In this document: one piece after another, positions 5,812-56,887 of the stretch
How the letters are laid out: every line of letters starts with the position of its first letter
Numbering within the stretch: position 1 is the stretch's first letter
Assembly (NCBI GenBank): GCA_965225795.1
Contig: OZ245324.1
Coordinates: 568,944 to 632,943 of the forward strand
Direction of reading: 5' to 3'
Length of the DNA stretch: 64,000 bases
Source of the DNA: Dehalococcoidia bacterium
GTDB taxonomy: Bacteria; Chloroflexota; Dehalococcoidia; Lucifugimonadales; JADFKI01
Translations under genes and position numbers: made by a program
The notes under the pieces: model-generated
What the model saw: the letters and a program-made list of their open reading frames with translations, nothing else
Databases searched by the model: none
Told to the model about the DNA's origin: nothing

Positions 5812-6348
5812 TTAGCTAACCAATTGACTTAGCGTTTGCGGCAGAGCCTCTTCCGCACGTGCCATCACCTCTTCTTCGTTCAGGCTGCCCATCGGATGAC
5901 CTATGACTGCGTACTCGTATCCTGGCATAGCCAGCAAGTTAGTCATTGCTCGCGCTTGAGTATTGAATGGCTTTGTGACTAGGACTGAACAAGGAATGCC
6001 GAGCCTCTCCAGAGCGGCTGCGTCCTGCATACAGCAGGATGTGCAACTCCCTCACTCTGCTGTCGCAGCAATAACAACATCGCACTGCTCGGCCATCTCT
6101 GCAATCATCTCAGCAGGCGCTGGAATGCGGTGCGATCTCTTATTTGCCTCCACAACATTCTTGACTGCATACTGCTTCTTAACTAGGTTCGCAACGTCGC
6201 GCAGCAGCAATTCAGAATTCGGCTTGTTATTAGACAGCAGTCCGACTACCAGTCCGTCAAGGGTGCGCGGGCGCTGTGCTATGCCGGTGTTCTCGTGCAT
6301 GCTCCCGCCGCGCGGATCAAGTGTAATCAGTTCGTTCTCTTGAGTCAT
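5812..6348 (-). CDS. UGSC-type selenoprotein (U-G-S-C-T-S-C, a UxxCxxC motif) with in-frame TGA at 6052-6054.
   Basis: Track ORFs 6052-6357 and 5812-6030 are in one frame, separated only by TGA: ..VVIAATAE-U-GSCTSCCMQDAAALERLGIP.. The GAGGTG RBS lies 6 nt before ATG 6348. A hairpin follows the TGA. Confidence 0.75.
6023..6039 (-). promoter_or_regulatory. Candidate bacterial SECIS hairpin for the UGSC gene.
   Basis: The mRNA UCCUGC-UGUAU-GCAGGA starts 13 nt after the UGA, and its loop contains GU. Confidence 0.4.
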
Positions 6349-6388
6349 AGCATTCACCTCTAAGTCTGAATCTGCTTCTTGAAATCCG

Positions 6389-7408
6389 CTATGTGCGGAT
6401 TTCCTTGGTAATTGAAATCACATCTCCCCACGCACCGATCAGCATTGCAAAGGGTCCCGCATCGCCCCCCGCTCCCACAACCGTTATCTCTTCCGTACTT
6501 GCTACCACGGGAATCCGCCTATCCAAGTCGTGCCCGGTGTACAGAGTGATGCGTCGGTGCATTTCGTTCAGTTCACGCCCCGTTCTTGTACCCCGTTCCA
6601 GCATGAATTCCTTGATTCGCTGTTTCGTCCACCCCGCAGTGCGTATGTAATTCATCAGCTCGGGGCTAAGTGCAAGCACAAATTCGGAGTGACGTTCTCC
6701 CAGTACGATTGATGCGTCAGCCGCAATGCTTAGAAAGTCTTCCGGCGCGCTCTCATTCTGAGTGTTCACTTGCACAGGCGAGTTCGCTGCGAACACTGTA
6801 ACAGTGCTATCGGACTCTTTGAACCCCTTCTCTACTCGCAAAGGCTCCCAAGGTATGACGTCGTCGTTCTCCGCGAAGCAGAACGAATACTTGCCCGGAT
6901 GCCCGAAGGTGCTCTTATCCATCCCGTGCGGCACAGAACCGTACACATTTATCTTGATAAGCCCCATCGCGCGCCCGATGGTTGCGTTCGCGCGGAAACC
7001 ATGCCCCATTGCCACCGTGCTTGAGTTGATGCCAATCTGCTTGGCAATGTCGCCGCTGACAATAACCAGTACGCTCACTCCGTTGGTCGATGTGCTGTTG
7101 GCATGAAAATTGAACGCACGCTCCGACACCGCCTGCACTGCCGCCACGATTACCGGCATGTATTCCGGCTTGCACCCTGCCAAAACCGCGTTGATTGCGA
7201 CTTTCTCAGCGGTGAACTCAACGCCGCGCACGCACTCTTCCGCAATGATGTCTGAAGGCGCAAGCCCGGCGTAGTCGAGCATCGCCTGCACCATGGATTC
7301 CGTCGGTGGCACGACAGGCAACCCGTCGCCCATCCCATCAGACATGTAATAGTCTTGAGCGTCTTCATAGCTCGAGTGACGGACCCTTGATGAAGTAAGG
7401 CCGTTCAT
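6389..7408 (-). CDS. Conserved hypothetical protein (GDGLPVVPPT motif), co-oriented partner of the UGSC selenoprotein.
   Basis: 339-aa ORF lying 31 nt upstream of the UGSC gene and 21 nt downstream of the esterase gene. I recognise no family. Confidence 0.6.
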   Translation of the reverse strand: MNGLTSSRVRHSSYEDAQDYYMSDGMGDGLPVVPPTESMVQAMLDYAGLAPSDIIAEECVRGVEFTAEKVAINAVLAGCKPEYMPVIVAAVQAVSERAFNFHANSTSTNGVSVLVIVSGDIAKQIGINSSTVAMGHGFRANATIGRAMGLIKINVYGSVPHGMDKSTFGHPGKYSFCFAENDDVIPWEPLRVEKGFKESDSTVTVFAANSPVQVNTQNESAPEDFLSIAADASIVLGERHSEFVLALSPELMNYIRTAGWTKQRIKEFMLERGTRTGRELNEMHRRITLYTGHDLDRRIPVVASTEEITVVGAGGDAGPFAMLIGAWGDVISITKEIRT

Positions 7409-7429
7409 TTGAATTCCAATCCTCTTCTC

Positions 7430-8344
7430 TTATGCTAGGCTAACTGCAACGCCGATTTGTTCCTTTATGAAGTCGCCCATGCGATCTACTGCCTGCTGAC
7501 CTTCCGGCAGAAATGGCGCGAACCACGGCCAGACATGTACCATGTCGTCCCAGACCTCCAGCGTGCTGTCCACCCCTGCGGCTTCCGCCTTTTCGTGTAG
7601 TCTCACGGCGTCGTCCATCAATACTTCAGCTGTGCCTACGATGATGAGCAGAGGCGGCAACCCTGCTAGGTCTGCATAGAGCGGTGCAGCCAGCGGATCT
7701 CGAGTATCCTCCCCGCCGAGGAATTTTTCCGCCATTTCCAGCAGCCCTTGCTGTGAAACCATTGGGTCTATGCCGGCCTTGGAAGTCATGGAATCGCCGA
7801 TGCCCTCCATATCGACCCACGGCGATACGCAGACACCTGCTGCAGGAATCGGGTCGCCCGCGTCTCGCGCCGAAAGGAGAGTTGCGACCGCAAGTCCGCC
7901 GCCCGCTGAATCTCCTGCAACCACTATTGATGAGGAATCAATGTCATTGTTCAGCAGCCAGCGGTAAGTCGCATGCGCGTCCTCAACTTGGGCAGGATGC
8001 TTGTGTTCGGGCGCAAGTCTGTAATCTACAGTGAGCACGCGGCAACCACTCGCCCGAGACAGGTTCGCAGCCATGCCTCTGTGGCTTTTCACGGAGCCTG
8101 TTACATATCCGCCCCCGTGCAGGTAAAGGATTGCGCCGTTGCCCGCACCTTCCGCTAATACCCACTCTGCTGGCACGCCGTCCGCATTGACTGCTTCTGT
8201 GGTGACTCCATCAAGATTCTGAAACCTTGCACCCATCAGCTCGCTTCCAGCGCGCCTCTCTTCTAATGTCGGCGTTCTTTCAGCGTTCGCGATCGCACGT
8301 TCCGCGAACATTTCCAGTAGGTCCTGCAACTCTGCGCTTGCCAT
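7430..8344 (-). CDS. Alpha/beta hydrolase, hormone-sensitive-lipase-type carboxylesterase.
   Basis: HGGGY oxyanion motif and GDSAGG nucleophile elbow; 304 aa. Confidence 0.85.
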   Translation of the reverse strand: MASAELQDLLEMFAERAIANAERTPTLEERRAGSELMGARFQNLDGVTTEAVNADGVPAEWVLAEGAGNGAILYLHGGGYVTGSVKSHRGMAANLSRASGCRVLTVDYRLAPEHKHPAQVEDAHATYRWLLNNDIDSSSIVVAGDSAGGGLAVATLLSARDAGDPIPAAGVCVSPWVDMEGIGDSMTSKAGIDPMVSQQGLLEMAEKFLGGEDTRDPLAAPLYADLAGLPPLLIIVGTAEVLMDDAVRLHEKAEAAGVDSTLEVWDDMVHVWPWFAPFLPEGQQAVDRMGDFIKEQIGVAVSLA

Positions 8345-8539
8345 CTGATGCTCCTTTTCCGTCCAAGGTGGGTCTCACATTTGTGTGTGGAGGTATCGGC
8401 GATTTTCACGATTATATCGCCACAGACGCCAAGTGCCAAGTTGCTCCGCGGAATCCTATACCACTTGTGGGAATATGATATGATTGGCACGCTTCCCGCA
8501 GTTCAGATTCGCCTCTACGCCAAAACGGGGGACAGCAGA

Positions 8540-9574
8540 ATGGCTCGCCGCAACTTCTCTATGATTGAGTATTTCAATCGCCGTGCCAAGAACTGGACGC
8601 CGCGGCTTGCATTTCGAGGCGAGACAAAGGCAGACTGGGAAGCTTGGCGTGGTACTGCACTGGCAAAATTGATAGATGTTCTAGGGGAATTCCCCGAAAC
8701 AGTTGACCCTGCACCCGAAGTCGTCTATTCGGTTGAAGACAACGGACTTGTGCGCGAGCGTGTTGTTTTTGATTCGGAAGAGTACATGTCGGTGCCATGC
8801 GTAATCCTCAAACCTGCTGATATGCCCAACGACGGAAGTTCACCGGCGATCCTGTGCAGCCACGGGCACGGTCCTTTCGGCAAGGAGCCTGTTGCAGGCA
8901 ACGCCTCATCCGAGGCAATGCGGGCTAATATGGCAAGGCACAACTACAATTACGCTGAGCAGATGGCTCGCAGGGGTTTCCTGACGATAAGCCCGGACCT
9001 TAGGTGCTTCGGTGAACGTTCCGATGGGCCGGACCCATATCCGGGCCGCGACCGGTGCAATGTTCATTTCGTACGTGGCGCGGTTATGGGAATATATACT
9101 CTCACACTGAACATCTGGGACATGATGCGCTGCATAGACTACCTGCAAAACCGACCTGAAGTTGATCCTGAGAGAATCGGGATGATGGGGTTGTCGCAGG
9201 GTGGAACTATGACCACCTTCACTGCGGCAATCGAGCCTAGAATCAAAGCCGCCGACATCATCGGATATCTCAACCCCTGGGCCGAATTCGGCATTCAGAA
9301 TGCCAATTTCTGCGGCTCCCAAATTGTGCCTGAAGTGTACCGATACCTGGACACTCACGACATCGCCGGGCTGGTAGCACCTCGTCCTCTGCTTGTTGAG
9401 ATGGGTGTACACGACACCACATTTCCCATCGAGGACATGCTTAGCGGATATGAAGGAGTAAAGCGAATTTACGCCGCCGCTGAAGCGTCCGCACATCTAT
9501 GGGCGGATGTTCATCCGGGAGAGCACGCCTTCGCGGCAAACAAAGCGTTCGATTTCTTCGAGCGGTACTTGTGA
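8540..9574 (+). CDS. Alpha/beta hydrolase (acetyl-xylan-esterase/dienelactone-hydrolase-like).
   Basis: GLSQGG nucleophile elbow and C-terminal HD/H residues. The track start at 8348 would abut the divergent gene. ATG 8540 is preceded by GGGGGA. Confidence 0.7.
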   Translation: MARRNFSMIEYFNRRAKNWTPRLAFRGETKADWEAWRGTALAKLIDVLGEFPETVDPAPEVVYSVEDNGLVRERVVFDSEEYMSVPCVILKPADMPNDGSSPAILCSHGHGPFGKEPVAGNASSEAMRANMARHNYNYAEQMARRGFLTISPDLRCFGERSDGPDPYPGRDRCNVHFVRGAVMGIYTLTLNIWDMMRCIDYLQNRPEVDPERIGMMGLSQGGTMTTFTAAIEPRIKAADIIGYLNPWAEFGIQNANFCGSQIVPEVYRYLDTHDIAGLVAPRPLLVEMGVHDTTFPIEDMLSGYEGVKRIYAAAEASAHLWADVHPGEHAFAANKAFDFFERYL

Positions 9575-10525: not shown

Positions 10526-10580
10526 GGCACCTGTTAGGCGCCTGCGAGCGCTCAGATCAAGAGCTTCGACTGCCCTTTTG

Positions 10581-24622: not shown

Positions 24623-25465
24623 CTAAATGATGAGAGGCGTGCCCTCGCGGTTCGCCCACTCGCCCATGGAACCGTCGTAGTTTCGCGCGCGGTCATAGCC
24701 AAGAAGCTTAAGTACGAAAACTCCGTGCGCCGCACGGATGCCACCCTGTCAATAAGTTATGATTTCCTTATCCGGCGTCGCTCCCACTTCTTCGAGCATC
24801 GCCCTAAGTTCATCAGCCGGCTTGATGGTCTGATGGCTGTCGTCGGTGATGAAATTCAGCCATTCGAGGTGTACCGCTCCCGGTATGCGTCCCGCCCGCG
24901 CGTTGCCTCGAGAATTGCTGCCGTCCCATTCGCCATCGGAGCGCACATCTAGGAACACGACGTCATCATTACCCACGTTGGCGACGCCGTGGTCAAGAGT
25001 ACATACCAGGTCAGGGTTCGGCTGAGGTGTAAATGTAACTTCTGAAGTGGTCGTCGTACTAATGGAAGTGGGGCGTCCTTCGTCGTACCATTTCTTCCAA
25101 CCGCCGTTGAGCACCTTGACATTGGTATGACCATGGTAGTTCAGCACCCACCAGAGGCGCGTTGACCACAGTGCGCCGTTGCTGTCATACGCTACGACTA
25201 GGTGGTCGTCGCCAATGCCCATTCGCTCCATCACTTCCTTCATAGTGTCGGGTGGAGCGACTAATGGATAGCCACGAGGATCGTCATCATAACCCGGCTC
25301 TTTGATGTAGTGATGAACCGGTATGCCGACGGCATTCCTGATATGCGCACGTCCGTAGGCGTCATACGGGTCACAATCAACTATTCGAATCGTCGGGTCG
25401 TCAAGCCTGGCTTCGAGCCAGTCTGCTGCGACCAGAATATCCGGATTTGCGTATCCCTGATTCAT
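24623..25465 (-). CDS. Two-domain rhodanese (thiosulfate/3-mercaptopyruvate sulfurtransferase-like) with selenocysteine at the catalytic position; in-frame TGA at 24749-24751.
   Basis: Track ORF 24749-25465 stops at TGA. The same frame continues as QGGIRAAHGVFVLKLLGYDRARNYDGSMGEWANREGTPLII to TAG 24623-24625. This completes the active-site loop (U-Q-G-G-I-R) and the canonical rhodanese C-terminus. Confidence 0.75.
24722..24738 (-). promoter_or_regulatory. Candidate bacterial SECIS hairpin for the rhodanese gene.
   Basis: The mRNA UCCGUGC-GGC-GCACGGA starts 11 nt after the UGA. Confidence 0.4.
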
Positions 25466-29850: not shown

Positions 29851-30759
29851 TTGGAACTGGGAATGATTGGCTTGGGCCGAATGGGCGGGAACATGACCCA
29901 GCGTCTCCTCGATGGCGGCCATCATATTGTCGCCTATGATCCCGATGAACAGGCCCGGTTGTCGGTCGTGAACGCCGGCGCAATCGAGGCAAGTTCCATT
30001 CATGAACTTGTTTCGCTCCTGTCGCCTCCTCGCGCGGTTTGGGTGATGGTACCCGCCGGTGATGTTACGGACGAAACAATAAGTACTCTCTCCGCTGAGT
30101 TGTCTGTGGGAGACACCATAATCGACGGCGGCAACTCCAATTATAGAGACACGATTCGCCGTTCAGCTGATGTCGGGGATCGGGGAATCACGATGTTGGA
30201 TGTAGGCACGAGCGGAGGTGTCTGGGGACTGACAGAAGGTTACAGCCTTATGATCGGTGGTGATGCTGAGGCGTATTCACGTCTTGAACCTATATTCCAG
30301 ACACTTGCGCCTGGCGCGAGTATAGGATATGGGCACGTGGGACCGTCTGGCGCGGGGCACTTCGTGAAAATGGTCCATAACGGCATAGAATACGGAATGA
30401 TGCAGGCCTTCGCAGAGGGCTTTGAACTCATGGAAGCCAAGCATGACCTGGAACTCGACCTCGCGCAGATTGCCCACATTTGGCGCTACGGCAGTGTAGT
30501 TCGGTCATGGTTGCTTGATCTAACAGCAGCGGCTCTGGATGAGGATGGCAGTCTGGAAGGTATCCAGGCGTATGTGGAGGACTCTGGCGAGGGACGCTGG
30601 ACAGTAGAAGAATCGATCGATCTGGCTGTTCCGATTCCAGTTATTGTTGCGTCATTGCAAGCGCGATTCCGCTCGAGACAGGACTCCCCCTTCGGAGCAA
30701 AACTGTTGGCAGCAATGCGAAATCAATTCGGCGGGCATAGTGTCAGAAAGTCGGAATGA
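29851..30759 (+). CDS. gnd: 6-phosphogluconate dehydrogenase, decarboxylating (short ~300-aa type).
   Basis: [11 protein letters not shown] Rossmann motif and [12 protein letters not shown]. The TTG start at 29851 lies 6 nt after GGAGG. Confidence 0.85.
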
Positions 30760-32444: not shown

Positions 32445-33875
32445 GTGGGGAGTAACTTGCGGCACAGAATTGCACGGACTTGGTTTTTTGCGGCGCTCGC
32501 CGTGATGCTCTTGATGATGGGTTCTTTGGCTGCTGCGTGCGGCGCTAGCGTACCCGGGACGGAGCTCGAACAGGTGGCACCGATTCAGAACCCCGCGGCT
32601 GATCCCGAATCTAGCAATATTCCAAACTCAGAAGTGTCATCACCTACGGTTCCACCTGCTGAGCAATCGGAGGCCTCGCGTGCTGCTGTACCTGCGGCAA
32701 CACATACAGCTAAGTCACTCGTGGCGGCGCAAGTTCCGGCGTTCACAGCAACTCAAAACGTGGATATGAGTGGAGAAAATGGCAGCATCACGCCCGATCG
32801 AGATTACGAAGGGGCCTTGAGCGCAGCAAGACTAAGCACCAGAGGTTGGGATACCGATTTCAGGTTTCACACTGTACCTTACAGCGAGATAAGATCTGTC
32901 ATTCCTCGCGACAACATCCCGTCGATAGACAAACCCTCCTTTATCGCTCCCTCGGAGGCATCGGCGTGGCTGAGTGATGTTGAGCCTGTGGTATCTCTTG
33001 AAATCAGCGGAGATGTCCGCGCGTACCCGCTCCAGATTCTGACCTGGCACGAAATAGTCAACGACACCGTTGGGGATGTTCCTGTGGCAGTAACATTTTG
33101 CCCGTTGTGCAATTCGGCGATTGCGTTCGACCGGCGTCTGGATGGAAAAGAGCTTGAATTTGGAGTGTCGGGGAATCTTCGCAACTCCGACCTGATAATG
33201 TACGACCGGGAGACGCATTCATGGTGGCAGCAATTCACAGGTGAAGGCATAGCAGGGGAGCACGCGGGACGAAGCTTAAACCATCTCCCAGCCTTTATAG
33301 TATCGTTCGCGGATTTTCAGAGAGCTCACCCGAATGGGAAAGTATTGTCGCGAGATACCGGTTACGCACGTCAGTATGGGCGAAATCCATACGCCGGGTA
33401 TGACACGATCGAAGGAAATCCATTCTTGTTCACAGGAGATTTGGATGGCAGGCTCCTTCCCGTCGAGCGTGTCATCGCAGTAACCATTGGGGAAATTGAT
33501 GTGGCATTCCCGCTGAGTATTCTGCAGGAGGAAGGCGTAATAAACTATGAAACTTCCGGGAGCTCGATTACCGTGTTCCACAAGTTTGGAACAACATCCG
33601 CACTTGACGCTGGTTCAATTGCGGACTCTCGAGATGTGGGATCAGCCGGGGTCTTCGATGCCAGTCTAGACGGCCAGGGATTGACATTCAGCATCAAGAA
33701 TGAAGATATCATTGATGACCAGACGGGAAGCAAGTGGGATATCCTGGGCAATGCCGTGGACGGACCGCTTGCAGGAGAGAGGCTCACTCCAATAGTGCAT
33801 GGCAATCATTTCTGGTTTGCCTGGGCTGTGTTTAAGCCCGACACGCTAGTGTATCAGGGCAGGGAAGGCGCATGA
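32445..33875 (+). CDS. Secreted DUF3179-like protein (probable lipoprotein).
   Basis: LAAAC lipobox. IPSIDKPSF, RAYPLQILTWHEIVND and VTFCPLCNSA motifs are typical of DUF3179. Confidence 0.7.
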   Translation: MGSNLRHRIARTWFFAALAVMLLMMGSLAAACGASVPGTELEQVAPIQNPAADPESSNIPNSEVSSPTVPPAEQSEASRAAVPAATHTAKSLVAAQVPAFTATQNVDMSGENGSITPDRDYEGALSAARLSTRGWDTDFRFHTVPYSEIRSVIPRDNIPSIDKPSFIAPSEASAWLSDVEPVVSLEISGDVRAYPLQILTWHEIVNDTVGDVPVAVTFCPLCNSAIAFDRRLDGKELEFGVSGNLRNSDLIMYDRETHSWWQQFTGEGIAGEHAGRSLNHLPAFIVSFADFQRAHPNGKVLSRDTGYARQYGRNPYAGYDTIEGNPFLFTGDLDGRLLPVERVIAVTIGEIDVAFPLSILQEEGVINYETSGSSITVFHKFGTTSALDAGSIADSRDVGSAGVFDASLDGQGLTFSIKNEDIIDDQTGSKWDILGNAVDGPLAGERLTPIVHGNHFWFAWAVFKPDTLVYQGREGA

Positions 33876-33970: not shown

Positions 33971-34660
33971 TTAGTTGGCAATGATGTCTTCGAAAAGATC
34001 TGCCCAACTTTCGTAGTCGCCCTTCCCAAAGCCATAGCGGTGCGTAATCGTTCCGTCCCTGCTAATTGCGACTTTAGAAGCCTGGGTATAGATTCTTAGT
34101 GCATCCAGCATGCCTTCGTCCGGATGGGCTACCGGCCAAGGCAATCCCTTGCCTTCCCTGTCGGCCTCCAATTTTTCTAAGCTTTCGGACAGGTCAGTAC
34201 CTACGAGGTAGAATGCGATCTGATCAGTGTAGTTTGCACCGATCTCATCCTGAATGCGCCGCAACTCGACGCGGCAGGTTCCTCACCAGGTAGTGTGGAA
34301 GTAAATGAAGGCAGGCTTGCCTTCATCGAAAATTGCCGCAGATGTGACCCGGCTGCCATCCAGCAGGCTCATGCCGAATTCCGGGACGTGCATTCCAACT
34401 TTGTAGCCGACTTCCACTGGACCGGCTTCTGGCTCGCTCTCTACAGCCTCAATTGCCTTTTGGGGGGCGGAGTCAGCTTGCGCCATTTCCGCGGCCTGTG
34501 TTGGCACCGCCACCAGCTCCGACGCAGGCACAACTTTGGGTGCGGGAGGCACGGAAATGCTCTCAGCGGTCTGAGAGGCGGGTGCCGCGCCGCATCCGAA
34601 CAATATCCCTATCGTCGCTCCAAGTGTCAGCAGAAGGGATAGTGCAAATTTAGTGCTCAT
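33971..34660 (-). CDS. Thioredoxin-fold (TlpA/ResA-like) thiol:disulfide oxidoreductase lipoprotein with a W-U-G-T-C redox motif; in-frame TGA at 34283-34285.
   Basis: Track ORFs 34283-34660 and 33971-34264 share one frame: ..KPAFIYFHTTW-U-GTCRVELRRIQDE.. It has an N-terminal lipobox (LFGCG). Confidence 0.75.
34258..34275 (-). promoter_or_regulatory. Candidate bacterial SECIS hairpin for the thioredoxin-fold gene.
   Basis: The mRNA GCCGC-GUCGAGUU-GCGGC starts 8 nt after the UGA. Confidence 0.35.
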
Positions 34661-34755: not shown

Positions 34756-36117
34756 TCAGCCAACAGTTTGCGGGCGAGCTTCCAGAGTCACTTCAATTTG
34801 GGCGCTATCTCCCCCGTCTCGCACTACGCTCATCGTGACCGTGTCGCCCGGTTTCGTGTTTTCCATCAGGTATATGATCAGGTCGTTCATGCTGACGATA
34901 GCCTGCTCGTCAATGGCCGTTATGACATCGCCTCCGTAACGTATGCTGCCTTCATCTGTCCGCTTGTTCTTGTCGCTGCCGACTAGGCCAGCCTGCTGCG
35001 CGGGGCCTTCTTCTGCAAGAGCAATTACCTGAGCCCCGCGAGTTCCTGCTGGTGCGTTCATCAGCTCTACAGCTTCGGCCCCTATGGTCGTACCGCGGAT
35101 GCCCAGCCATGAGTATGTAAAGGCGCCGTCGCTGATGAGAACGGGTACAATCTGTTTTGCAATGTTAATTGGAATAGCAAAACCGATGCCTGTGTTTGAG
35201 CCAGAGCGCGTGATTATCTGGGCGTCAATTCCGATGACACGCCCTTGCCTGTCCAGCAATGGGCCCCCTGAATTGCCGGGGTTCATTGGTGCATCCGTTT
35301 GTATGACCTTAGGCAATGAGAAGTGGGAATCGCTAGTGCGTATAGTGCGTCCGATGGCGCTGACAATGCCCGTTGTAGTTGAGAATTCCTGCCCAAACGG
35401 GTTGCCAATGGTGATTGCGATCTGCCCGACGCGAATTTCATTGCTGTCCCCAAGAGATACTGGTTTCAGCAACTCCGCGTCGCGTTCAATCTTCAGGACT
35501 GCCAAATCTGAATCTTCGTCCCAACCGATCACCTCGGCCTCAGCGTCACTGCCGTCAGAGAAGACAACCGTTATGCGCTCGGCGTCGACAACGACATGCC
35601 GGTTCGTCACTATGTGCCCCGCGTCGTCCCATACGAATCCTGAGCCCTGTCCGTTTCTGTAGAAGAATTCCTGCTGCGAGCCGCCATCTGGAGGAGACCC
35701 TTGTCCAAATGGAAAAGGAGAAGTGAATCCTGGAATTGAACTGGAGATTTCGACGCGGTTGAGCACGAAGACACTGACGACGGATGGCAGCACATCGTCA
35801 TGTACGTCGCCTATCACGCTTTCATAGGCGGCAACTATTTCGTCGGCGTCTATTTCAAATGCGGGAGGCTGCTTAGGTTCATTCGAAGGTATTCCGTCCA
35901 GCAGCGGCTGCGCGGATGAATTCTCCCCTGCCGGCACCTGCCATGAAGCGCGGGAGGTTTGTACATCTTCAGCGGGGACACTTATGGAATTGGCAGACGA
36001 TGCGCCATAGTTGTCCGTAGATGCCGCGGGCGCACTGCTGCATGCGAGCGTCGCGGCGAGGATTGAAAACAGGCAGGTGAGCGCAGGATACTTCAGACTC
36101 TTTAATCCATGTGTCAT
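34756..36117 (-). CDS. HtrA/DegP-family trypsin-like serine protease with a PDZ domain.
   Basis: TNRHVV (His), DLAVLK (Asp), GNSGGPL (Ser), a C-terminal PDZ domain and an N-terminal signal/lipobox (LAC). Confidence 0.9.
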   Translation of the reverse strand: MTHGLKSLKYPALTCLFSILAATLACSSAPAASTDNYGASSANSISVPAEDVQTSRASWQVPAGENSSAQPLLDGIPSNEPKQPPAFEIDADEIVAAYESVIGDVHDDVLPSVVSVFVLNRVEISSSIPGFTSPFPFGQGSPPDGGSQQEFFYRNGQGSGFVWDDAGHIVTNRHVVVDAERITVVFSDGSDAEAEVIGWDEDSDLAVLKIERDAELLKPVSLGDSNEIRVGQIAITIGNPFGQEFSTTTGIVSAIGRTIRTSDSHFSLPKVIQTDAPMNPGNSGGPLLDRQGRVIGIDAQIITRSGSNTGIGFAIPINIAKQIVPVLISDGAFTYSWLGIRGTTIGAEAVELMNAPAGTRGAQVIALAEEGPAQQAGLVGSDKNKRTDEGSIRYGGDVITAIDEQAIVSMNDLIIYLMENTKPGDTVTMSVVRDGGDSAQIEVTLEARPQTVG

Positions 36118-40149: not shown

Positions 40150-40443
40150 ATGGCAACTCGTAGGAAGAGTGAAATGGCAGATAGGGTAGCCGATAGGTTG
40201 GGCTGCACCAAAGCACAGGGAGAAGCTGCGCTCAATGCGGTTTTGAGAAGCATTCAGGATGAATTATCCAAAGGAAACAGAGTCGTGCTCACCGGTTTTG
40301 GCACCTTTGAGTTGCGAGATGTTAAGGCGCGCAAGGTGAGGCCAATTAGGGGCAGCAAGGCGGGGGATCTCATCGAAGTCCCAGCACACAAACGAGTGGG
40401 CTTCTCCGCGGGAGCTGAGTTGAGCAAGGCCGCTCAAAGCTGA
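40150..40443 (+). CDS. HU/IHF-family DNA-binding protein.
   Basis: VVLTGFGTFELRDVKARKVRPIRGS...VPAHKRVGFSAG is the beta-arm signature. AAGGGAGG RBS. Confidence 0.9.
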   Translation: MATRRKSEMADRVADRLGCTKAQGEAALNAVLRSIQDELSKGNRVVLTGFGTFELRDVKARKVRPIRGSKAGDLIEVPAHKRVGFSAGAELSKAAQS

Positions 40444-40473
40444 CAACTCTCCAGAATTTGGTTGTCTTTCTGA

Positions 40474-40506
40474 AGGTGGACTGGTTAATCCGGTCCACCT
40501 TTTTTG
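40474..40506 (+). terminator. Rho-independent terminator after the HU gene.
   Basis: An 11-bp stem AGGTGGACTGG / CCGGTCCACCT has a 5-nt loop and is followed by TTTTT. Confidence 0.85.
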
Positions 40507-40590
40507 TGTCCGCTGTCTTTGTCGACGAACACGAGTTTGGAATATATTATCGAAATATGACGTAATTACGCTTGACGGGAAAAGCACGAG

Positions 40591-40615
40591 TGTTCTAGCA
40601 TCCTCGTATAGAACA
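40591..40615. promoter_or_regulatory. Inverted repeat TGTTCTA-N11-TAGAACA (possible operator) overlapping a candidate promoter.
   Basis: A perfect 7-bp inverted repeat lies 23 nt upstream of the small zinc-ribbon gene. TTGACG at 40572-40577 is a possible -35. Confidence 0.3.
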
Positions 40616-40637
40616 TATTGGGAGCCAGGAGGACTTA

Positions 40638-40835
40638 GTGAAATCTCATCAAGCGATGCAGGGCAGAAACATATACCTTAAGCAGTGCCCTCGGTGCGCC
40701 GGTGATCTCAGCACCGGCAGCGACCATTATGGCAGGTACATCCATTGCCTGCAGTGCGGCTATATGGCAGATATCGAGTACTCAAACCAGAGAGAGGTAA
40801 TCTCAGTGTTTGTGGGGAAAGGCAAAGTAGCATAA
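40638..40835 (+). CDS. Small zinc-ribbon protein (CPRC...CLQC), function unknown.
   Basis: 65 aa, GTG start preceded by a strong AGGAGG RBS, with two CxxC pairs. Confidence 0.5.
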   Translation: MKSHQAMQGRNIYLKQCPRCAGDLSTGSDHYGRYIHCLQCGYMADIEYSNQREVISVFVGKGKVA

Positions 40836-40929
40836 TCCTGCTAGACAGGAACGCCTAACGGGCGGAGCCTGCGCTCTGCCCGTATTGGTTTAGTGGGCTC
40901 GCAGACTCTGAGCCTGAAACCAAGCAGTT

Positions 40930-42171
40930 TCATTGGCCCTTGTGAGACTTGAACACACTACTTGCCGCTCCGACACCTGCCCCTGTCGCTACTTCAAACC
41001 CTGCTTCTGGCAAAACGCTTTCCAAAGCGGATAGAAGAGCCAGCACATATTCGGCCTTGCTGGATTCGCCCATCAGCCCTATGCGCCACACATTGCCTGC
41101 AAGTTCGCCCAGCCCACCGCCGATCTCGATGCCGTAGCCCCGTAGCAAGCGTTGTCTCACCTGCATATCGTCAATGCCATCCGGTATTTTCACGACAGTT
41201 ATCTGTGCGAGGCGATACTCAGAGGGCACCACGCATTCAAGGCCGAGTCCTTCTAGTCCGGCGCACAGAGCTTGGGCGTTGAATGTGTGGCGGGTAAAAC
41301 GCTCGGTCAGCCCTTCCGTCAACACCTGACGTAAACCCTGTCGGAGCGCAAGAATCATGCTTACCGGAGCGGTATGGTGATATACGCGCTGGCCTTCCCA
41401 GCCCCAGTAGTTGCCGAGCAAGGCCAAGTCAAGATACCAAGACATAGGCGCTTGCTTGCGTTGTCGCATCGTCTCAAGCGCACGGTCGCTTACGGCAACT
41501 GGCGAAAGTCCCGGCGGACAGCCGAGGCACTTCTGGGTTGCCGAATATGCGTAGTCCGCGTTCCACTCATCAAAGGCTACCTCGTTTCCGCCAAGCGAGG
41601 TTACTGTATCTACCATGAATAAGGCGTCATTCTCTTTGGCAATTCGGGCCAACCCAGCAATCGGTTGGCGCACTCCGGTGGATGTCTCCGCGTGTATTGC
41701 GGTCACCATCTTTACGTTGCTTTGCCTGGCGAGTTCCGCCTCAAGCATCTCTTCGGGGAAGGGACGTCCCCACTCTGCTCGGAGCGGCACTACATTAGCT
41801 CCGACACGGTTCGCCATTTCCACCATACGTTCGCAGAAGAAGCCATATATGCACATCACAACAGTGTCGCCCGGCTCCAGAAGACTGCTTAAGCCTGCTT
41901 CCATGCCAGCCGAACCTGTGCCCGATATAGCCAGAGTATTCGCCGTATCAGTCTGATACACACGTTTCAGGAGTTCCCTGACCTCGTCCATAATCAGCAT
42001 GAAGTCCGGGTCCATGTAGCCTATCATCGGCTGCATCATTGCCTGTAACACACTGGGGCTTACGTTGCTCGGACCCGGACCCAACAATATTCGAGAGGGG
42101 ACTGCCGGCATTGCGGATTCGGGTAATGTGGTTGGCGTCATTCTTTCACCTTGGACACTGGCGCTTGACAT
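40930..42171 (-). CDS. Class V PLP-dependent aminotransferase (serine-pyruvate/alanine-glyoxylate type).
   Basis: 413 aa. LLGPGPSNV N-terminal motif, and SATQKCLG containing the PLP lysine. Confidence 0.85.
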   Translation of the reverse strand: MSSASVQGERMTPTTLPESAMPAVPSRILLGPGPSNVSPSVLQAMMQPMIGYMDPDFMLIMDEVRELLKRVYQTDTANTLAISGTGSAGMEAGLSSLLEPGDTVVMCIYGFFCERMVEMANRVGANVVPLRAEWGRPFPEEMLEAELARQSNVKMVTAIHAETSTGVRQPIAGLARIAKENDALFMVDTVTSLGGNEVAFDEWNADYAYSATQKCLGCPPGLSPVAVSDRALETMRQRKQAPMSWYLDLALLGNYWGWEGQRVYHHTAPVSMILALRQGLRQVLTEGLTERFTRHTFNAQALCAGLEGLGLECVVPSEYRLAQITVVKIPDGIDDMQVRQRLLRGYGIEIGGGLGELAGNVWRIGLMGESSKAEYVLALLSALESVLPEAGFEVATGAGVGAASSVFKSHKGQ

Positions 42172-51432: not shown

Positions 51433-51663
51433 GTGGACAATTGGCATTTGGCCCCTGTCATTCTGAGTGAAGCGAGAGATCTTAAGTTTGTGAATGGCGC
51501 ATGTGCAACGAGTTTAGATTCTTCACTCCGCTGCGCTGCGTTCAGAATGACAGAGGGTGAAGGCGCTGCGTTCAGAATGACAGGGGCTGAAAGCACTGCG
51601 TTCAGAACGACGGAATAAGCCTACTTTTCAGGTCCAAAACGCTCTGTGTATCAAATGTCAACA
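51433..51663 (+). repeat. MITE-like repeat element, copy 1 (three internal ~31-nt tandem units).
   Basis: Shares with copies 2 and 3 the ends GTGGACA... / ...ATGTCAACA. It also shares the long hairpin core GTCATTCTGAGTGAAGCGAGAGATCT..AGATTCTTCACTCCGCTGCGCTGCGTTCAGAATGAC and the tail GGTCCAAAACGCTCTGTGTATCA. Confidence 0.85.
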
Positions 51664-51820
51664 GAACCTAACAAGACGGCTGACTATCAACCCCCACCGC
51701 TGTTTTTGCAATGGCTGGCTCTAGCATTCCTCTAAGGAGTGGCAAGGTACTATGAGTTAGGGGCTTCGGTTGCGGTTGCGTTCGCGCTTGAGGCGGCGCT
51801 CTTCTCTTTCGAGTCGCCTG

Positions 51821-52156
51821 TCATCCTGCGCATCGGGCGAATAGGTCTGCTCTTGCCTTGCGCTCCGCTGTCTCCGCCGCTCGCTCCAGTATCTCCTGCT
51901 CCCTTGCCCACGCCTCGCGCTGCTCCTCCGTGGGTGGCGTGTGGCTCTGAATGACGTCCGGATGGTCTTCATCCAGGTCCTTGCAGACGCAGAGGCAGTC
52001 GGGGTGACAGGGGGCGTAGAACATCATGAAGTCAGGGTCGGGCTGCGCTGGGTTGCCAAATCCCCAATGAAGCAGGACTTTAGCCGCTTCTATCCTGTCG
52101 CGAGTCCTTGCGTCAGGGTCGTTTCCTTCCAGAATCTCCAGCAGGACTCTTACCAT
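51821..52156 (-). CDS. Hypothetical protein, member of the DPD..R..AA..LL..GFG motif family; Cys-rich middle segment.
   Basis: MVRVLLEILEGNDPDARTRDRIEAAKVLLHWGFG matches the motif in ORFs 2-1042 and 52150-52545. The start overlaps the upstream stop (ATGGTAA). Confidence 0.5.
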   Translation of the reverse strand: MVRVLLEILEGNDPDARTRDRIEAAKVLLHWGFGNPAQPDPDFMMFYAPCHPDCLCVCKDLDEDHPDVIQSHTPPTEEQREAWAREQEILERAAETAERKARADLFARCAG

Positions 52157-52545
52157 ACTCGCTCCGCCCTCTGAGTCAACGCGGATGCGTGCGACGAGGG
52201 TTTCTTGTTCACCTTCTCGTGTTCAGGGCTGAGTGGCTGCTGTGCGGGCTGTGAGCCATCCTGCGCTTCATCGTCATACTGCGAGGCAGCATTGCGCTGA
52301 TGTCCTGAGCTGCCCAGGGCTTCTCTGGCTTCTTCGAAGCCGAGCCTGAGCAGGATGCGCGCCGACTGGAGGCGGTGAGAGGGCTTGCCGTCGGGGTCCT
52401 CGCCGTTCATGATGGAGACGAGGTTGCGGATGATGGTTCTGCCACCTTGCGTCTCTTCGAGGACGATGCGCTGTATGCGCTGAAGGGTGTCTATGGGGAT
52501 GTGCTGCGAATCTACATCCCGTTGCTGATGGATGGGCTCAATCAT
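52150..52545 (-). CDS. Hypothetical protein, member of the DPD..R..AA..LL..GF motif family.
   Basis: GRTIIRNLVSIMNGEDPDGKPSHRLQSARILLRLGFEE carries the motif; 131 aa. Confidence 0.5.
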   Translation of the reverse strand: MIEPIHQQRDVDSQHIPIDTLQRIQRIVLEETQGGRTIIRNLVSIMNGEDPDGKPSHRLQSARILLRLGFEEAREALGSSGHQRNAASQYDDEAQDGSQPAQQPLSPEHEKVNKKPSSHASALTQRAERVW

Positions 52546-52619: not shown

Positions 52620-52861
52620 GTGGTGACATTTTGAGGTTGTCTTTCATTACTTCTGTCATTTCAAGTGAAGCGAGAAATCTGAAATCGGAGACTGGTGGGT
52701 GCGCGGCGACTTTAGATTCTTCACTCCGCTGCGCTGCGTTCAGAATGACAAGGGATGAAGGCGCTGGGTTCAGAATGACAGGGGATGAAAGCGCTGGGTT
52801 CAGAATGACAGAGTAAACATACATTTCGGGTCTAAAACGCTTTGTGTATCACATGTCAACA
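52620..52861 (+). repeat. MITE-like repeat element, copy 2 (three internal tandem units).
   Basis: Same ends, hairpin core and tail as copies 1 and 3, in the same orientation. Confidence 0.85.
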
Positions 52862-52991
52862 CGTCCTAGTGTGCTTTGGCAGGCTCAGACCGAATATTTA
52901 GGTTTACATGGATGAAAGGGCAAGGATGGGAATGAGCTGGCTAGTGGAGTGATATACTGTGTGCGGATTTTCCATTTCTAGGCGGTGGGAA

Positions 52992-53693
52992 TTGATTGAG
53001 GCTATAGTATTCGATTTTGATGGCTTGATTCTGGATACGGAGACTCCTGAGTTCGACACTTGGCAGGAGGTTTTCGAATCCCACGGCGTAAGGTTGGAGC
53101 GGGGGACATGGGATTTGTCGATTGGGCGGCACAGCAAGGACTTTGATATATATAAGCATCTTGCAGACTTGACGGGCCAGCACATAGAGCAGGAAGCTGT
53201 CAGGCCGAAGATGCGCCGCCGCTATCTTGAGCGCATAGATGAAAATCCTGTTCTGCCGGGCGTGGGGGATTACCTTGCATCGGCGAAAGACATGGGGTTG
53301 AGGCTTGCGGTTGCTTCAAGTTCGTCACCCGGTTGGGCCGTGGGACATCTGGAGCAAAGGAGTTTGCTACATTACTTTGAATTCGTGCTGAGTCATGGCG
53401 ACGTTACGAATGGCAAGCCTGATCCAGAGTTGTACACAATGTCCTTAACACGCCTTGGGGTACGGCCTCAAAACGCTTTTGCGATTGAGGATTCCGTCAA
53501 CGGACTCACTGCCGCGAAGGCTGCGGGGCTTCAGTGTGTGGTCGTGCCGAACCCAATGACGCGAGGTATGGATTTTGGATTGGCTGACATTTGCCTGGAC
53601 GCGCTTTCCGACCTGCCTCTTAAGTGCCTGCTTGAAGAGCTAGAATATCAGGCGCCTAGCGGGAATGATGACTTATCAAAAGCGAAAGTTTGA
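52992..53693 (+). CDS. HAD-superfamily hydrolase (beta-phosphoglucomutase/phosphatase-like).
   Basis: FDFDGLILDTE motif I, VASSS motif II, and GKPDPE / EDSVNG motifs III-IV. The probable TTG start at 52992 follows GGTGGGA; the track start is 52959. Confidence 0.85.
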   Translation: MIEAIVFDFDGLILDTETPEFDTWQEVFESHGVRLERGTWDLSIGRHSKDFDIYKHLADLTGQHIEQEAVRPKMRRRYLERIDENPVLPGVGDYLASAKDMGLRLAVASSSSPGWAVGHLEQRSLLHYFEFVLSHGDVTNGKPDPELYTMSLTRLGVRPQNAFAIEDSVNGLTAAKAAGLQCVVVPNPMTRGMDFGLADICLDALSDLPLKCLLEELEYQAPSGNDDLSKAKV

Positions 53694-53786
53694 GTTATTA
53701 TCTGTAAGTGTTGCTGCTATGGCTTGCTTTGCGGAACAGTGCCAGACGTTACACTCGGAATCGATAGTAAGTGGCAGGAGGTAGTC

Positions 53787-54260
53787 ATGCCAAAGGTAAG
53801 CGGACTAGGACATGTGGGAATATATGTGAACGACCTTATGGGGCAGCGAGACTTTTACTCGCGTGTGATGGGCCTGGAGATCACGGATGAGGACCTGGAG
53901 CAGCGCAGAATGGTGTTCCTGAGCGCGAACCCTGATGTGGAGCATCACGAGTTCGTACTGATGGAGGGACGCGATGTGCCATCGGACGCGAAGCTAGTGC
54001 AGCAGATTTCCTTCACCGTGGAGACGATAGCGGAGCTGAAGGACTTCTATCGCACTTTTAGCGACGAGGGCGTCAAAATCCAACGCATCGTGAGCCATGG
54101 CAATGCCTTCGGGATGTATGCGGACGACCCGGAGGGCAATACACTTGAGGTCTATTACAAGACGGGGCTGGATGTGCCGCAGCCGCACGGCGACCACATC
54201 GAGTTGGACATGTCGGATGAAGAACTGATGTCGATCGCTGAGGCGGCGGTGCCTAACTAG
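53787..54260 (+). CDS. VOC-family protein (glyoxalase/extradiol-dioxygenase-like).
   Basis: LGHVGIYVNDL..FYSRVMGLEITD, HHEF and DPEGNTLEVY motifs. ATG 53787 follows an AGGAGG RBS. Confidence 0.85.
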   Translation: MPKVSGLGHVGIYVNDLMGQRDFYSRVMGLEITDEDLEQRRMVFLSANPDVEHHEFVLMEGRDVPSDAKLVQQISFTVETIAELKDFYRTFSDEGVKIQRIVSHGNAFGMYADDPEGNTLEVYYKTGLDVPQPHGDHIELDMSDEELMSIAEAAVPN

Positions 54261-54278
54261 AAACGAATTCTTCAGACA

Positions 54279-54312
54279 GGCGACGCTGCGGGATTACCAG
54301 TGCAGCGTCGCC
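54279..54312 (+). terminator. Hairpin terminator after the VOC gene.
   Basis: The 11-bp stem GGCGACGCTGC / GCAGCGTCGCC has a 12-nt loop. The downstream tract is only weakly T-rich. Confidence 0.5.
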
Positions 54313-54409
54313 ATATTAATGGCATGAGCCATGGCATGAGCCAATTCCGCGCGAACGCGTTGGACAAGCTCCGACCTTCTTTTATAAAGAGTTTGGATAC
54401 TAGGTCGTG

Positions 54410-54588
54410 TGGACATTTTGAAGTTGCGTTTCATTACTTCTGTCATTTCGAGTGAAGCGAGAAATCTGAAATCGGAGAATGGTTTATGTACAACGATTTT
54501 AGATTCTTCACTCCGCTGCGCTGCGTTCAGAATGACAGAATGGATCTACTCTTCAGGTCTAAAACGCTCTGTGTATCAGATGTCAACA
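54410..54588 (+). repeat. MITE-like repeat element, copy 3 (one internal unit).
   Basis: Same ends, hairpin core and tail as copies 1 and 2. It is shorter because only a single GTTCAGAATGACA unit is present. Confidence 0.85.
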
Positions 54589-54612
54589 TGTACTGGGTGG
54601 ACGAGTTAACAC

Positions 54613-54954
54613 ATGCCGGAAATAGCGAATACGGAAGGTGTTAGGTTGGAGTCTCGCTTGAACGATATGCGGATATTGGGAATGCCCGTGCAATTTGTCG
54701 CTGTCGTCACCATTAGCCTTGCGCTAACGATTTACTTCGGCGCTTGGGCTGCCGATGCGCGCGTGAGTGAGCGGGTGGCGCAATCCACGACGCAAAGTGT
54801 GCAGCAGTTCGACTTTTCGTCGGCTGCGGGTACGTCTTTCGGCTCCGGACAATCCGGCGGGCTAGGGCAGGACGTAGGCGCCCTGCAATACGGAAGCGCA
54901 GCGGAAGGGCAGGGATGGGAGAGGTTCTTCCTGGTCGCATGCCCGCTGCATTAA
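54613..54954 (+). CDS. Hypothetical small membrane-anchored protein.
   Basis: 113-aa ORF with one predicted TM helix (VQFVAVVTISLALTIYFGAW) and a G/S/Q-rich tail. It ends 18 nt before the MFS gene. No family was recognised. Confidence 0.35.
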   Translation: MPEIANTEGVRLESRLNDMRILGMPVQFVAVVTISLALTIYFGAWAADARVSERVAQSTTQSVQQFDFSSAAGTSFGSGQSGGLGQDVGALQYGSAAEGQGWERFFLVACPLH

Positions 54955-54972
54955 GGACTTTAAAACCAACCA

Positions 54973-56307
54973 ATGGCACGACAGCCTGAGCCATCCACAA
55001 GCCGCCCGCAGTCGAACTACGGGCGGGCCATTTATCCTCACTATGTCTGGGTGATTGTCGGTGTCATTGCGGTGATGCAGATGGTGGGCACGTCCATTCG
55101 CATGGCGTTCGGAGTGTTCATCGATCCACTGGAGCAGGAATTCCAGTGGAGCCAAGGGAGCATCACGCTGGCATACGCCATATCGAGCGTGGTGACCGCC
55201 TTGGCTTCTCCGTTTGCGGGCTGGTTCGGCGACCGATTTGGTGCGCGGCGGGCGATGGTGGTGGGCACAGCGATGTTCCTCGCGGGCATGCTGCTCACCG
55301 GACAGATAAGCACCATCTGGGAGCTATACCTGTACTTTGGAGTGCTGCTCGGAACCGCACAGGCGATATTCCTCGTTCCCCTGATACCTTCGGCGATGTA
55401 CTGGTTTCGGCGGCATCTGGGCATAGGCATGGGTCTGATAATGGCGTCGTGGGGGCTTGGGCCCGCGCTTGCAGCCATTGTCGTGAGCCTGCTGCTCGAA
55501 GGAATGGGCTGGCAGAACGGCTTTATGGCGCTCGGGGTGGGTTCGGCGGCGATCATGTTCGTGCTTATTGGGCTGTTCAGGGACAGACCGGAAGACAGGG
55601 GGATTCAGCCTTACGGGCACAGGCCGGGAGATCCGGAGATACAGAAGAGGGGGGCAAACCCGGCGAGGACGAAGCTGTTCAATGGGTACATGCGGAAGAC
55701 CGCCGCCTTCTGGAATATGAGCTCCATCCACTTCCTAGGTTGCGCGGGGCACGCCATTATATTGGTGTACATCGTGCCTTTGGCGGTGAACGAAGGGCTG
55801 ACGCTGGTGCAGGCGGCTGGCGTCCTCACTGTTCTGTCGGCGGTTAGCGTCATATCGCGCGTCTTCGTGCCGATAATGTGCGACAACATCGGCACTCGGA
55901 CGGTTATGTTCATCTTTTTCGCGGCGCAGGGCATCCTGGTGGTTATGCTGTTCTGGACGCACGACCTGTGGATGTTCTACATGTTCGCGGTGATATTCGG
56001 CATTGGGTATGGCGGCGAGACAGGCGGGTTCCCTATGCTAAACAGGCGTTATTACGGGCACGCGCCCACAGGCTCACCTTACGGCGTGCAGATGCTGGGC
56101 GCAGGCCTAGGCATGGCGCTGGGCGGCTGGATCGGCGGGCCCATCTTCGACATGTTCGGCAGCTACAATGTCGCGCTGTGGATTTCGATTGCGACAAGCC
56201 TGGCGGGCGCGCTGAACATACTGCTGCTGGAGCCCACGGACAAGCTGCTGATACCGGACTGGGAGGCAGTAGAAGAGCCGACGGCCAGGGCTGCTGCGGG
56301 GGATTGA
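54973..56307 (+). CDS. MFS transporter (oxalate/formate-antiporter-like).
   Basis: 444 aa with about 12 TM segments and a GWFGDRFGARR motif. Confidence 0.8.
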   Translation: MARQPEPSTSRPQSNYGRAIYPHYVWVIVGVIAVMQMVGTSIRMAFGVFIDPLEQEFQWSQGSITLAYAISSVVTALASPFAGWFGDRFGARRAMVVGTAMFLAGMLLTGQISTIWELYLYFGVLLGTAQAIFLVPLIPSAMYWFRRHLGIGMGLIMASWGLGPALAAIVVSLLLEGMGWQNGFMALGVGSAAIMFVLIGLFRDRPEDRGIQPYGHRPGDPEIQKRGANPARTKLFNGYMRKTAAFWNMSSIHFLGCAGHAIILVYIVPLAVNEGLTLVQAAGVLTVLSAVSVISRVFVPIMCDNIGTRTVMFIFFAAQGILVVMLFWTHDLWMFYMFAVIFGIGYGGETGGFPMLNRRYYGHAPTGSPYGVQMLGAGLGMALGGWIGGPIFDMFGSYNVALWISIATSLAGALNILLLEPTDKLLIPDWEAVEEPTARAAAGD

Positions 56308-56323
56308 ATCTGAAACTGTCTGC

Positions 56324-56887
56324 CTAAGCCTTGGCCTTTGCATTCATGAGCCAGTGCTGGTTTCTGGCGGGGCTGTCGAGCCATGTTTCTACGTTCTCCT
56401 GACGCTCTTCGGGCACTTCGACGCCAAGACCGTCTGCGAGGCGGGTCATGAAGTTGAAGTTGCAGGTGATCAGGACAACGGAGAGGATCTGCTCGTCTGT
56501 CAGGCCGTGCTTACGGAGGGCTGTAACGTCCGATTCCTGCATCCTGGTGGGTTCGCGCGTGAGCTTGGTGGCGTAGTCGAGCATCGCGCGGGTCTGCGTG
56601 TCGAGGTCGGCGTTGCGGTAGTCGTGCATGACATGGCTTGCCAGTTCCGGGTCGTTGGAGGCGTAACGGAGAAACTCTCCGTGAGCCATTGTTCAAAAGC
56701 GGCATTGGTTCTGAACTGAGACTGCGGTGGCGATCGCCTCCTCCTGCGTGCGGGTGAGTGCGGACGAGCCGAAGGTGATGGCGTTGTTCAGGTCATTGAC
56801 CGCCTTCATTGCGGAGGGGTTGATGGACATCACATTGATGACATTCGCCGAGTGCAGAGGTTCGTCGGCTTCACGAATCCAGGACAT
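56324..56887 (-). CDS. AhpD-like / carboxymuconolactone-decarboxylase-family peroxidase-related protein with a C-R-F-U redox motif; in-frame TGA at 56693-56695.
   Basis: Track ORFs 56693-56941 and 56324-56689 share one frame: ..EAIATAVSVQNQCRF-U-TMAHGEFLR.. The likely start is ATG 56887 (MSWIRE), which follows an AAGGAAAC RBS. Confidence 0.75.
56666..56682 (-). promoter_or_regulatory. Candidate bacterial SECIS hairpin for the AhpD-like gene.
   Basis: The mRNA ACGGAGA-GUU-UCUCCGU starts 11 nt after the UGA. Confidence 0.4.

Follow-up and report, generated by a model that had tools for sequence, protein, structure and literature searches.

Among the selenoprotein families listed in the Global Ocean Sampling (GOS) catalogue are a UGSC-containing family with a UxxC motif, AhpD-like proteins with CxxU, thioredoxin- and peroxiredoxin-like (Trx/Prx-like) proteins with UxxC and a sulfurtransferase of COG2897 (PMC2398784), where U denotes selenocysteine (Sec). 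The entries of a 2026 review table include the UGSC family (NF041046), AhpD-like proteins of TIGR01926 with CxxU, rhodanese forms 2 and 4 with UxxG and thiol-disulfide isomerase-like proteins with UxxC (PMC13188914). We analysed a stretch of 64,000 nucleotides from a Dehalococcoidia bacterium (contig OZ245324.1, positions 568,944 to 632,943), hereafter called the window, that carries four genes of these kinds on its minus strand: a UGSC-family gene, a two-domain rhodanese gene, a gene for a TlpA/ResA-like protein with a thioredoxin fold (Trx-like) and an AhpD-like gene. Each is split by one in-frame TGA. The four TGAs are very probably decoded as selenocysteine by the standard route of SelB and the selenocysteine insertion sequence (SECIS), in each case at a redox-active site. 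Each of the four families, with the Sec motif seen here, has been catalogued before, and the genes of the window are further members of them.

An earlier note on this DNA had pointed to four minus-strand intervals in which two open reading frames (ORFs) of the same frame are parted by a single TGA with no other stop, and the translation of these intervals reproduced the peptides it quoted. The UGSC-family gene (5812-6348) encodes 178 aa with Sec99 in the motif U-G-S-C. Its Sec codon at 6052-6054, located in the peptide IAATAE-TGA-GSCTSCC, was assigned by translation of the joined frame and by the TGA in relatives. The two-domain rhodanese of the thiosulfate/3-mercaptopyruvate sulfurtransferase type (24623-25465, 280 aa) has Sec239 in U-Q-G-G-I-R, encoded by the TGA at 24749-24751 (EIITY-TGA-QGGIRAAHGVF). 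The TlpA/ResA-like thioredoxin-fold protein (33971-34660, 229 aa) starts with a lipoprotein-like signal peptide and carries Sec126 in W-U-G-T-C, with the TGA at 34283-34285 (YFHTTW-TGA-GTCRVEL), and the AhpD-like protein of the CMD family (TIGR01926, peroxidase-related; 56324-56887, 187 aa) carries Sec65 in C-R-F-U, with the TGA at 56693-56695 (VQNQCRF-TGA-TMAHGE). For these three genes the Sec codon was assigned by translation and by its conservation in orthologues. The six frames of the window contain about 78 same-frame ORF pairs that are parted by one stop, therefore the pair pattern alone is not evidence. The four pairs stand out because in each of them one protein family runs across the stop. 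Gaps of 9.5-22 kb with unrelated genes in between separate the four genes, thus they do not form an operon.

The joined products were queried with U replaced by C in family profile searches. In Pfam and NCBIfam, one family spans the stop in each product, which bears out the proposal that all four are full-length members of thiol-redox families, and alignments to PDB structures or to Cys-form homologues placed every TGA on a catalytic or redox Cys. The UGSC product matched Pfam PF24696 (UGSC) with an E-value of 2.4e-51 and 174.7 bits against a cut-off of 25, and NCBIfam NF041046, the 'UGSC family (seleno)protein' with the motif U-G-S-C, with 139 bits against a cut-off of 125. Its full-length Cys-form homologues show GD-C-GSC at the TGA column. 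In the rhodanese, two Rhodanese domains scored above the Pfam cut-offs, and the active-site loop of the C-terminal domain, UQGGIR, fits the pattern C-x-x-G-x-R. Residue alignment identified the TGA with the column of the catalytic Cys in the PDB structures 1uar (..VVYCRIAERSSH) and 3hwi (..IAYCRIGERSSH), and a full-length Cys-form homologue exists (P0114, TYCQAGIRAAHG). The score of 115.7 bits for the 3-mercaptopyruvate sulfurtransferase equivalog NF008557 was under the cut-off of 250. With 37.7 bits against a cut-off of 115, it was also no match for NF041203, the rhodanese-related (seleno)protein of the LYCAU form. The Trx-like protein reached 38.1 bits for AhpC-TSA (cut-off 26) and 27.5 bits for Redoxin (cut-off 26.6) in Pfam, and its TGA aligned with the first Cys of WCxxC, present as WCGVC in PDB 2ls5 and as WCPTC in DsbE. 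Scores of 24-27 bits for the ResA, StoA and DsbE models, under cut-offs of 123-359, place the protein outside these named subfamilies. The AhpD-like protein was above the Pfam cut-off for CMD and obtained 128.3 bits for TIGR01926 (cut-off 81.8). Its TGA corresponds to the second Cys of CyyC in PDB 3c1l and 2pfx, with C-R-F-U-T-M-A-H opposite nhCyyCltAHG of 3c1l, and the model NF041238 'AhpD_rel_CFYUT' gave 63.9 bits, under its cut-off of 175.

The earlier note had described a GC-rich hairpin of 5-7 bp, 7-12 nt behind each TGA, at the place expected of a bacterial SECIS. The model of the bacterial SECIS (bSECIS), as outlined in PMC13188914, comprises a stem of 4 bp or more, an apical loop of 3-9 nt, a G within the first two nucleotides of this loop, a UGA-to-loop distance of 16-37 nt and a free energy not above -7.5 kcal/mol. 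When the model was applied with the stem taken as contiguous, a fitting hairpin was present in each of the four genes, in agreement with the note. The stems of 6-7 bp begin 10-12 nt after the TGA, the apical loop lies 16-18 nt from it, and these hairpins are conserved in relatives. The UGSC hairpin (6017-6047, core 6023-6039; UCCUGC-UGUAU-GCAGGA) has 6 bp, a loop UGUAU of 5 nt with G at position 2, a UGA-to-loop distance of 18 nt and a free energy of -9.2 kcal/mol. The hairpin of the rhodanese gene (24722-24738; UCCGUGC-GGC-GCACGGA) has 7 bp and -9.9 kcal/mol and presents its loop GGC at 17 nt. Six base pairs and a loop AGUUG (5 nt, G at position 2) at 16 nt form the hairpin of the Trx-like gene (34256-34272; GCGUCG-AGUUG-CGGCGC; -7.8 kcal/mol), and the hairpin of the AhpD-like gene (56666-56682; ACGGAGA-GUU-UCUCCGU; -8.4 kcal/mol) consists of 7 bp with the loop GUU at 17 nt. 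The model thus fits 4 of 4 Sec TGAs, compared to 67 of the 2147 TGA trinucleotides in the window (3.1 %); among 14 TGAs that terminate genes it fits none.

The hairpins have left traces in the variation among orthologues. In 79 distinct rhodanese sequences, the entropy at the wobble positions was 0-0.3 bit for codons +4 to +8 (ATC CGT GCG GCG CAC), in contrast to 1.0-1.9 bit in the flanking codons, and both fourfold-degenerate Ala codons in the hairpin were invariant. These frozen wobble positions are the signature of an RNA constraint on top of the coding constraint. A compensatory exchange from C-G to A-U was present in two Entotheonella genomes, at the cost of a Gly-to-Val substitution. Hairpins of AhpD-like orthologues showed compensatory A-U to C-G as well as A-U to G-U exchanges, and the UGSC hairpin, which is kept in metagenome loci, a compensatory C-G to U-A exchange in locus L109. 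The Trx-like hairpin is kept in orthologues, with a change from U-G to U-A in L101.

Routine annotation was expected to emit fragments of such genes, and the public gene calls examined for orthologues of all four genes indeed split them. For the rhodanese, the top ~113 homologue clusters in a collection of 5.8 billion proteins (94-63 % identity) are 238-240 aa long and all end at ..TY. A scan of species-representative genomes yielded 80 loci, mostly in metagenome-assembled genomes (MAGs) of Dehalococcoidia/SAR202, the closest 96 % identical; other loci came from Entotheonella, Binatia, Thermodesulfobacteriota and Gemmatimonadetes. The Sec column is TGA in 80 of 80 loci and TAA or TAG in none, and 41-45 conserved in-frame codons follow. 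The terminal stop across the same loci is TAG in 28, TGA in 28 and TAA in 24. With a varied terminal stop and a fixed internal codon, TGA is an ordinary stop in these lineages, and the internal site is constrained to TGA. The codons past the TGA have the pattern of coding sequence, with an entropy near 0 at first and second positions and of 1-1.9 bit at third positions. An internal TGA that is invariant in 80 genomes, together with a variable terminal stop, makes the rhodanese set an unusually clean comparative view of a SECIS in a coding region. Across the MAGs of Dehalococcoidia, Entotheonella, Binatia, Thermodesulfobacteriota and Gemmatimonadetes, the Sec-rhodanese orthologues (L001-L080) are 66-96 % identical, which suggests a horizontal spread of the gene among co-occurring, often sponge-associated bacteria.

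The other three genes gave a concordant picture at the level of DNA. All 27 database homologues of the Trx-like protein are fragments of ~125 aa that stop at the TGA. Six loci, representing three distinct sequences with 98, 57 and 51 % identity, have kept the TGA and 103 conserved downstream codons at a constant total length of 228 aa. For the UGSC protein, 125 of the 150 best cluster representatives at 50 % identity are at most 105 aa long and break off directly ahead of the Sec column. In 12 of 12 metagenome loci (~10 distinct sequences, 84-34 % identity), the TGA is retained together with the reading frame behind it. Database homologues of the AhpD-like protein are C-terminal fragments of 118-121 aa, the first residue located 2 codons past the TGA, and the TGA is retained in the DNA of relatives with 83, 78 and 71 % identity (L081-L094).

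Two observations on AhpD-like relatives deserve mention. At the Sec column, four full-length proteins (P0121, P0122, P0180 and P0182) have Trp, Arg or Gly, encoded by codons that are each one nucleotide away from TGA. They may represent lineages in which a residue other than Cys took the place of Sec, or the short contigs may contain errors. A translation artefact of an alternative code was considered for these residues and rejected for P0182 (L095, 267-830), in which the codon is a real GGA. The 71 %-identical gene from the deep ocean has the same N-terminal +1 frameshift in eight loci (L084-L091, at ~1440-1470) from at least seven assemblies; the genes in L092 and L093 have different indels. 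The frameshift could mark a pseudogene or a case of recoding, or else reflect an error of a systematic kind.

A genome-wide reassignment of TGA to Trp or Gly would also open the four frames, and the residues (Trp, Arg or Gly) that some full-length AhpD-like database relatives show in the Sec column may be quoted in its favour. In the window, however, TGA ends 13 of 42 long ORFs at the point where their Pfam families end, and the tails gained by reading through are short and non-conserved. The earlier note had named the genes for HU (40441-40443), HAD (53691-53693) and gnd (30757-30759) as terminated by TGA, and all three were confirmed; the ORF that follows the HAD stop in frame belongs to a distinct gene of the glyoxalase type, which has a start of its own. 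Seven genes of the syntenic locus L096 likewise end in TGA, as do 28 of the 80 rhodanese orthologues, and in-frame TGAs in the window are limited to the four Cys columns. Even the Gly of P0182 does not derive from TGA, but from GGA. The genetic code is not reassigned, and a reassignment of TGA is excluded. A similarly negligible probability is attributed to sequencing or assembly errors at true TGC or TGT codons: nothing specific speaks for them, and the same TGA recurs in dozens of assemblies that were produced independently, by different projects and with different technologies.

Truncation and read-through are the more biological rivals. If the TGA were a real stop, the genes would be pseudogenes or would encode naturally truncated proteins, and the downstream ORF would be decaying or unrelated. 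Gene callers everywhere give only fragments of these genes, in line with this explanation, and in the related deep-ocean AhpD-like lineage a frameshift lies upstream of the TGA. Decay is hardly compatible with an internal codon that reads TGA, without a single TAA or TAG, in all 80 rhodanese orthologues when their terminal stop varies freely, nor with purifying selection on the downstream rhodanese codons, which vary at third positions only. Moreover, the downstream parts hold the active-site loop of the rhodanese, the second Cys of UxxC and the AhpD helix with its His, and the Trx-like orthologues are constant at 228 aa. We consider truncation highly improbable. Not quite as improbable, yet still very unlikely, is a machinery-independent read-through of UGA by near-cognate tRNAs inserting Cys or Trp, stimulated by the hairpin and leading to full-length proteins without selenium. 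It is compatible with a conserved TGA, frame and hairpin, and no Sec machinery was seen in the window or in related loci. This read-through would not explain why the hairpins fit the specific bSECIS geometry, with a G at loop position 1 or 2 and a UGA-to-loop distance of 16-18 nt, nor the assignment to curated Sec families; BSepDB, restricted to species with the Sec pathway, includes Dehalococcoidia; and TGC or TGT would be a cheaper encoding of Cys. Several further points weigh against the decoding as Sec. Among 40 proteins of the window searched for Sel domains, no SelA, SelB or SelD was present, and the window has no tRNA-Sec, its sole Rfam hit being a tRNA-Asn; neither selA, selB and selD nor a tRNA-Sec was found in 692 kb of related loci (114 loci for the tRNA-Sec). 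The Sec hairpins matched no Rfam family, as expected for bacterial SECIS elements, which are short and diverse. Folding z-scores of 65-nt stretches were modest (-0.1 to -2.7), a single hairpin pair is mismatched in a few orthologues, and the comparisons of the Trx-like and AhpD-like genes are small samples with 3 and 4 distinct orthologue sequences, respectively. Taken together, the four rivals retain a low probability beside the decoding as selenocysteine.

BSepDB holds only species with a Sec pathway, and its top ten, as reported in PMC13326102, includes MAGs of Dehalococcoidia that hold 49 and 46 selenoprotein genes. SelA and SelB are described in the literature as enriched in bins of sponge symbionts. 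The literature thus supports a Sec pathway in the class Dehalococcoidia, and we infer SelA, SelB, SelC and SelD for the genome of the window as well as an actual insertion of Sec. Two loci on chromosomes of uncultured Dehalococcoidia are syntenic with parts of the window: L082 (OZ241333.1) with the region of 54-62 kb, and L096 (ERZ25074053, a 690-kb contig), which carries the Trx-like and the rhodanese Sec genes, with the region of 24-45 kb. Many relatives originate from sponge or deep-ocean metagenomes. The organism is a marine, SAR202-like member of the Dehalococcoidia and is probably associated with sponges.

The earlier note had called four Sec genes in 64 kb a high density. This holds in comparison to most bacteria, but not for the lineage: about 48 genes per 3.5 Mb correspond to a Poisson expectation of 0.88 genes in 64 kb, one window holds at least four with a probability of 0.012, and about 0.7 such windows are expected per genome. 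In a lineage with 46-49 selenoprotein genes, four in 64 kb are therefore not exceptional. Further genes with an in-frame TGA were not detected in the window, neither as same-frame ORF pairs, nor by extension past TGA on both sides, nor among the TGAs that combine an open frame with a bSECIS-like hairpin. Additional Sec candidates at 61507, 27064, 51821, 53691, 56946 and 59320 were discarded, as they had no coding-like sequence, a separate gene start or an overlap with real genes. The selenoproteome of the window's genome could be one of the largest in bacteria, and this in a lineage that is generally regarded as aerobic.

In the proposed mechanism, the bSECIS hairpin inside the coding sequence, 10-12 nt past the UGA, would recruit SelB-GTP-Sec-tRNA(Sec) to the ribosome, and Sec would be placed where Cys homologues carry a nucleophilic or redox Cys. 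In the rhodanese, Sec would replace the persulfide-carrying Cys, and the protein may serve as a persulfide or selenosulfide carrier. The TlpA/ResA-like protein is a candidate for an exported thiol:disulfide oxidoreductase with a U-x-x-C motif, acting in extracytoplasmic disulfide reduction. A reduction of peroxides or disulfides may be carried out by the peroxidase-related AhpD-like protein with its C-x-x-U motif. The UGSC gene is presumably co-transcribed with that of a conserved partner of 339 aa. The practical value of the finding lies in the annotation: eight ORF fragments become four full-length selenoprotein genes. The decoding of selenocysteine and the knowledge of the four families remain unchanged, and a well-supported case of a selenoprotein-rich marine Dehalococcoidia is added.

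Only the neighbourhoods of the UGSC and the Trx-like gene are leads with some potential for novelty. The 339-aa partner of UGSC (6389-7408, minus strand) is encoded 40 nt upstream of the UGSC gene. It had no match in Pfam, NCBIfam or PDB, and a single-sequence AlphaFold2 model was unusable, with a mean predicted local distance difference test (pLDDT) of 33.5. In 11 metagenome loci, with identities as low as 35 %, the partner lies next to UGSC, and in P0364 it is fused to a UGSC domain (35 % identity, E-value 2e-52). The partner is probably 'Unknown_1' of the GOS catalogue, and the fusion P0364 its 'UGSC/Unknown_1' (PMC2398784). UGSC and its always adjacent, sometimes fused partner could constitute a two-component selenoenzyme. 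The Trx-like gene is located between a gene for an HtrA-type protease (34756-36117, minus strand) and a convergent DUF3179 gene (32445-33875, plus strand), and this order is kept in loci with 98-51 % identity. The DUF3179 protein of the window combines a lipoprotein-like signal with a C-P-L-C motif; the review table (PMC13188914) counts DUF3179 among the selenoprotein families (UxxC/T) of other organisms. Together, the Sec-TlpA-like lipoprotein, HtrA and DUF3179 could make up a redox module outside the cytoplasm that is specific to SAR202-like Dehalococcoidia. The two-component enzyme, the redox module and the exceptionally large selenoproteome are tentative ideas, and we rate them jointly as rather unlikely.

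Two features of the window lie apart from the Sec genes. A repeat of 216 nt occurs in two copies with 83 % identity (51455-51670 and 52653-52868) that flank two small genes at 51821-52545 on the minus strand. The repeat contains tandem units of 30 nt ending in ..CGCTGCGTTCAGAATGA and an inverted arm, and looks like a miniature inverted-repeat transposable element (MITE) or a repetitive extragenic palindromic (REP) element. A stretch of 487 nt between the genes for HU and a class-V aminotransferase (40443-40930) has no assigned gene. Only an ORF of 65 aa was called in this gap (40638-40835, plus strand), and it is present at the same position in L096.

In comparison with the described selenoproteins, the UGSC protein of the window corresponds closely to its family (PF24696, NF041046; Zhang and Gladyshev 2008, PMC2398784), with the same U-G-S-C motif and the same length. 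The Sec forms of this family outnumber the Cys forms, 255 to 21 in the counts given for GOS (PMC2398784), and the same was observed among the homologues found here. Before Sec, the window protein has ATAE instead of the more common xxGD; otherwise nothing material differs. The rhodanese shares the two-domain SseA/TST architecture with the rhodanese-related selenoproteins catalogued as COG2897 in GOS and as 'rhodanese-like forms 2 and 4, UxxG' in the review (PMC13188914). These proteins likewise have Sec in place of the catalytic Cys, and U-Q-G-G of the window protein fits UxxG. It differs from the single-domain 'LYCAU' form of NF041203. The COG2897 entry of GOS names one sequence only (PMC2398784), whereas the orthologue group of the window rhodanese is present in at least 80 species genomes. 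The AhpD-like protein resembles 'AhpD-like 1' of GOS (COG2128, CxxU) and the TIGR01926 proteins of the review in its C-x-x-U followed by x-x-H-G, and it is different from the 'AhpD_rel_CFYUT' proteins of NF041238. With the Trx-like, Prx-like and thiol-disulfide isomerase-like selenoproteins of GOS and the review (cd02966), the Trx-like protein has in common the thioredoxin fold, W-U-x-x-C and the location of Sec at the N-terminal nucleophilic position. Its group is distinguished by its narrow distribution (27 database hits), the lipoprotein-type signal and the conserved neighbourhood of HtrA and DUF3179. At the level of genomes, the closest counterparts are the selenoprotein-rich Dehalococcoidia MAGs of BSepDB, which belong to the same class and carry MAG names in the style of the closest relatives of the window.

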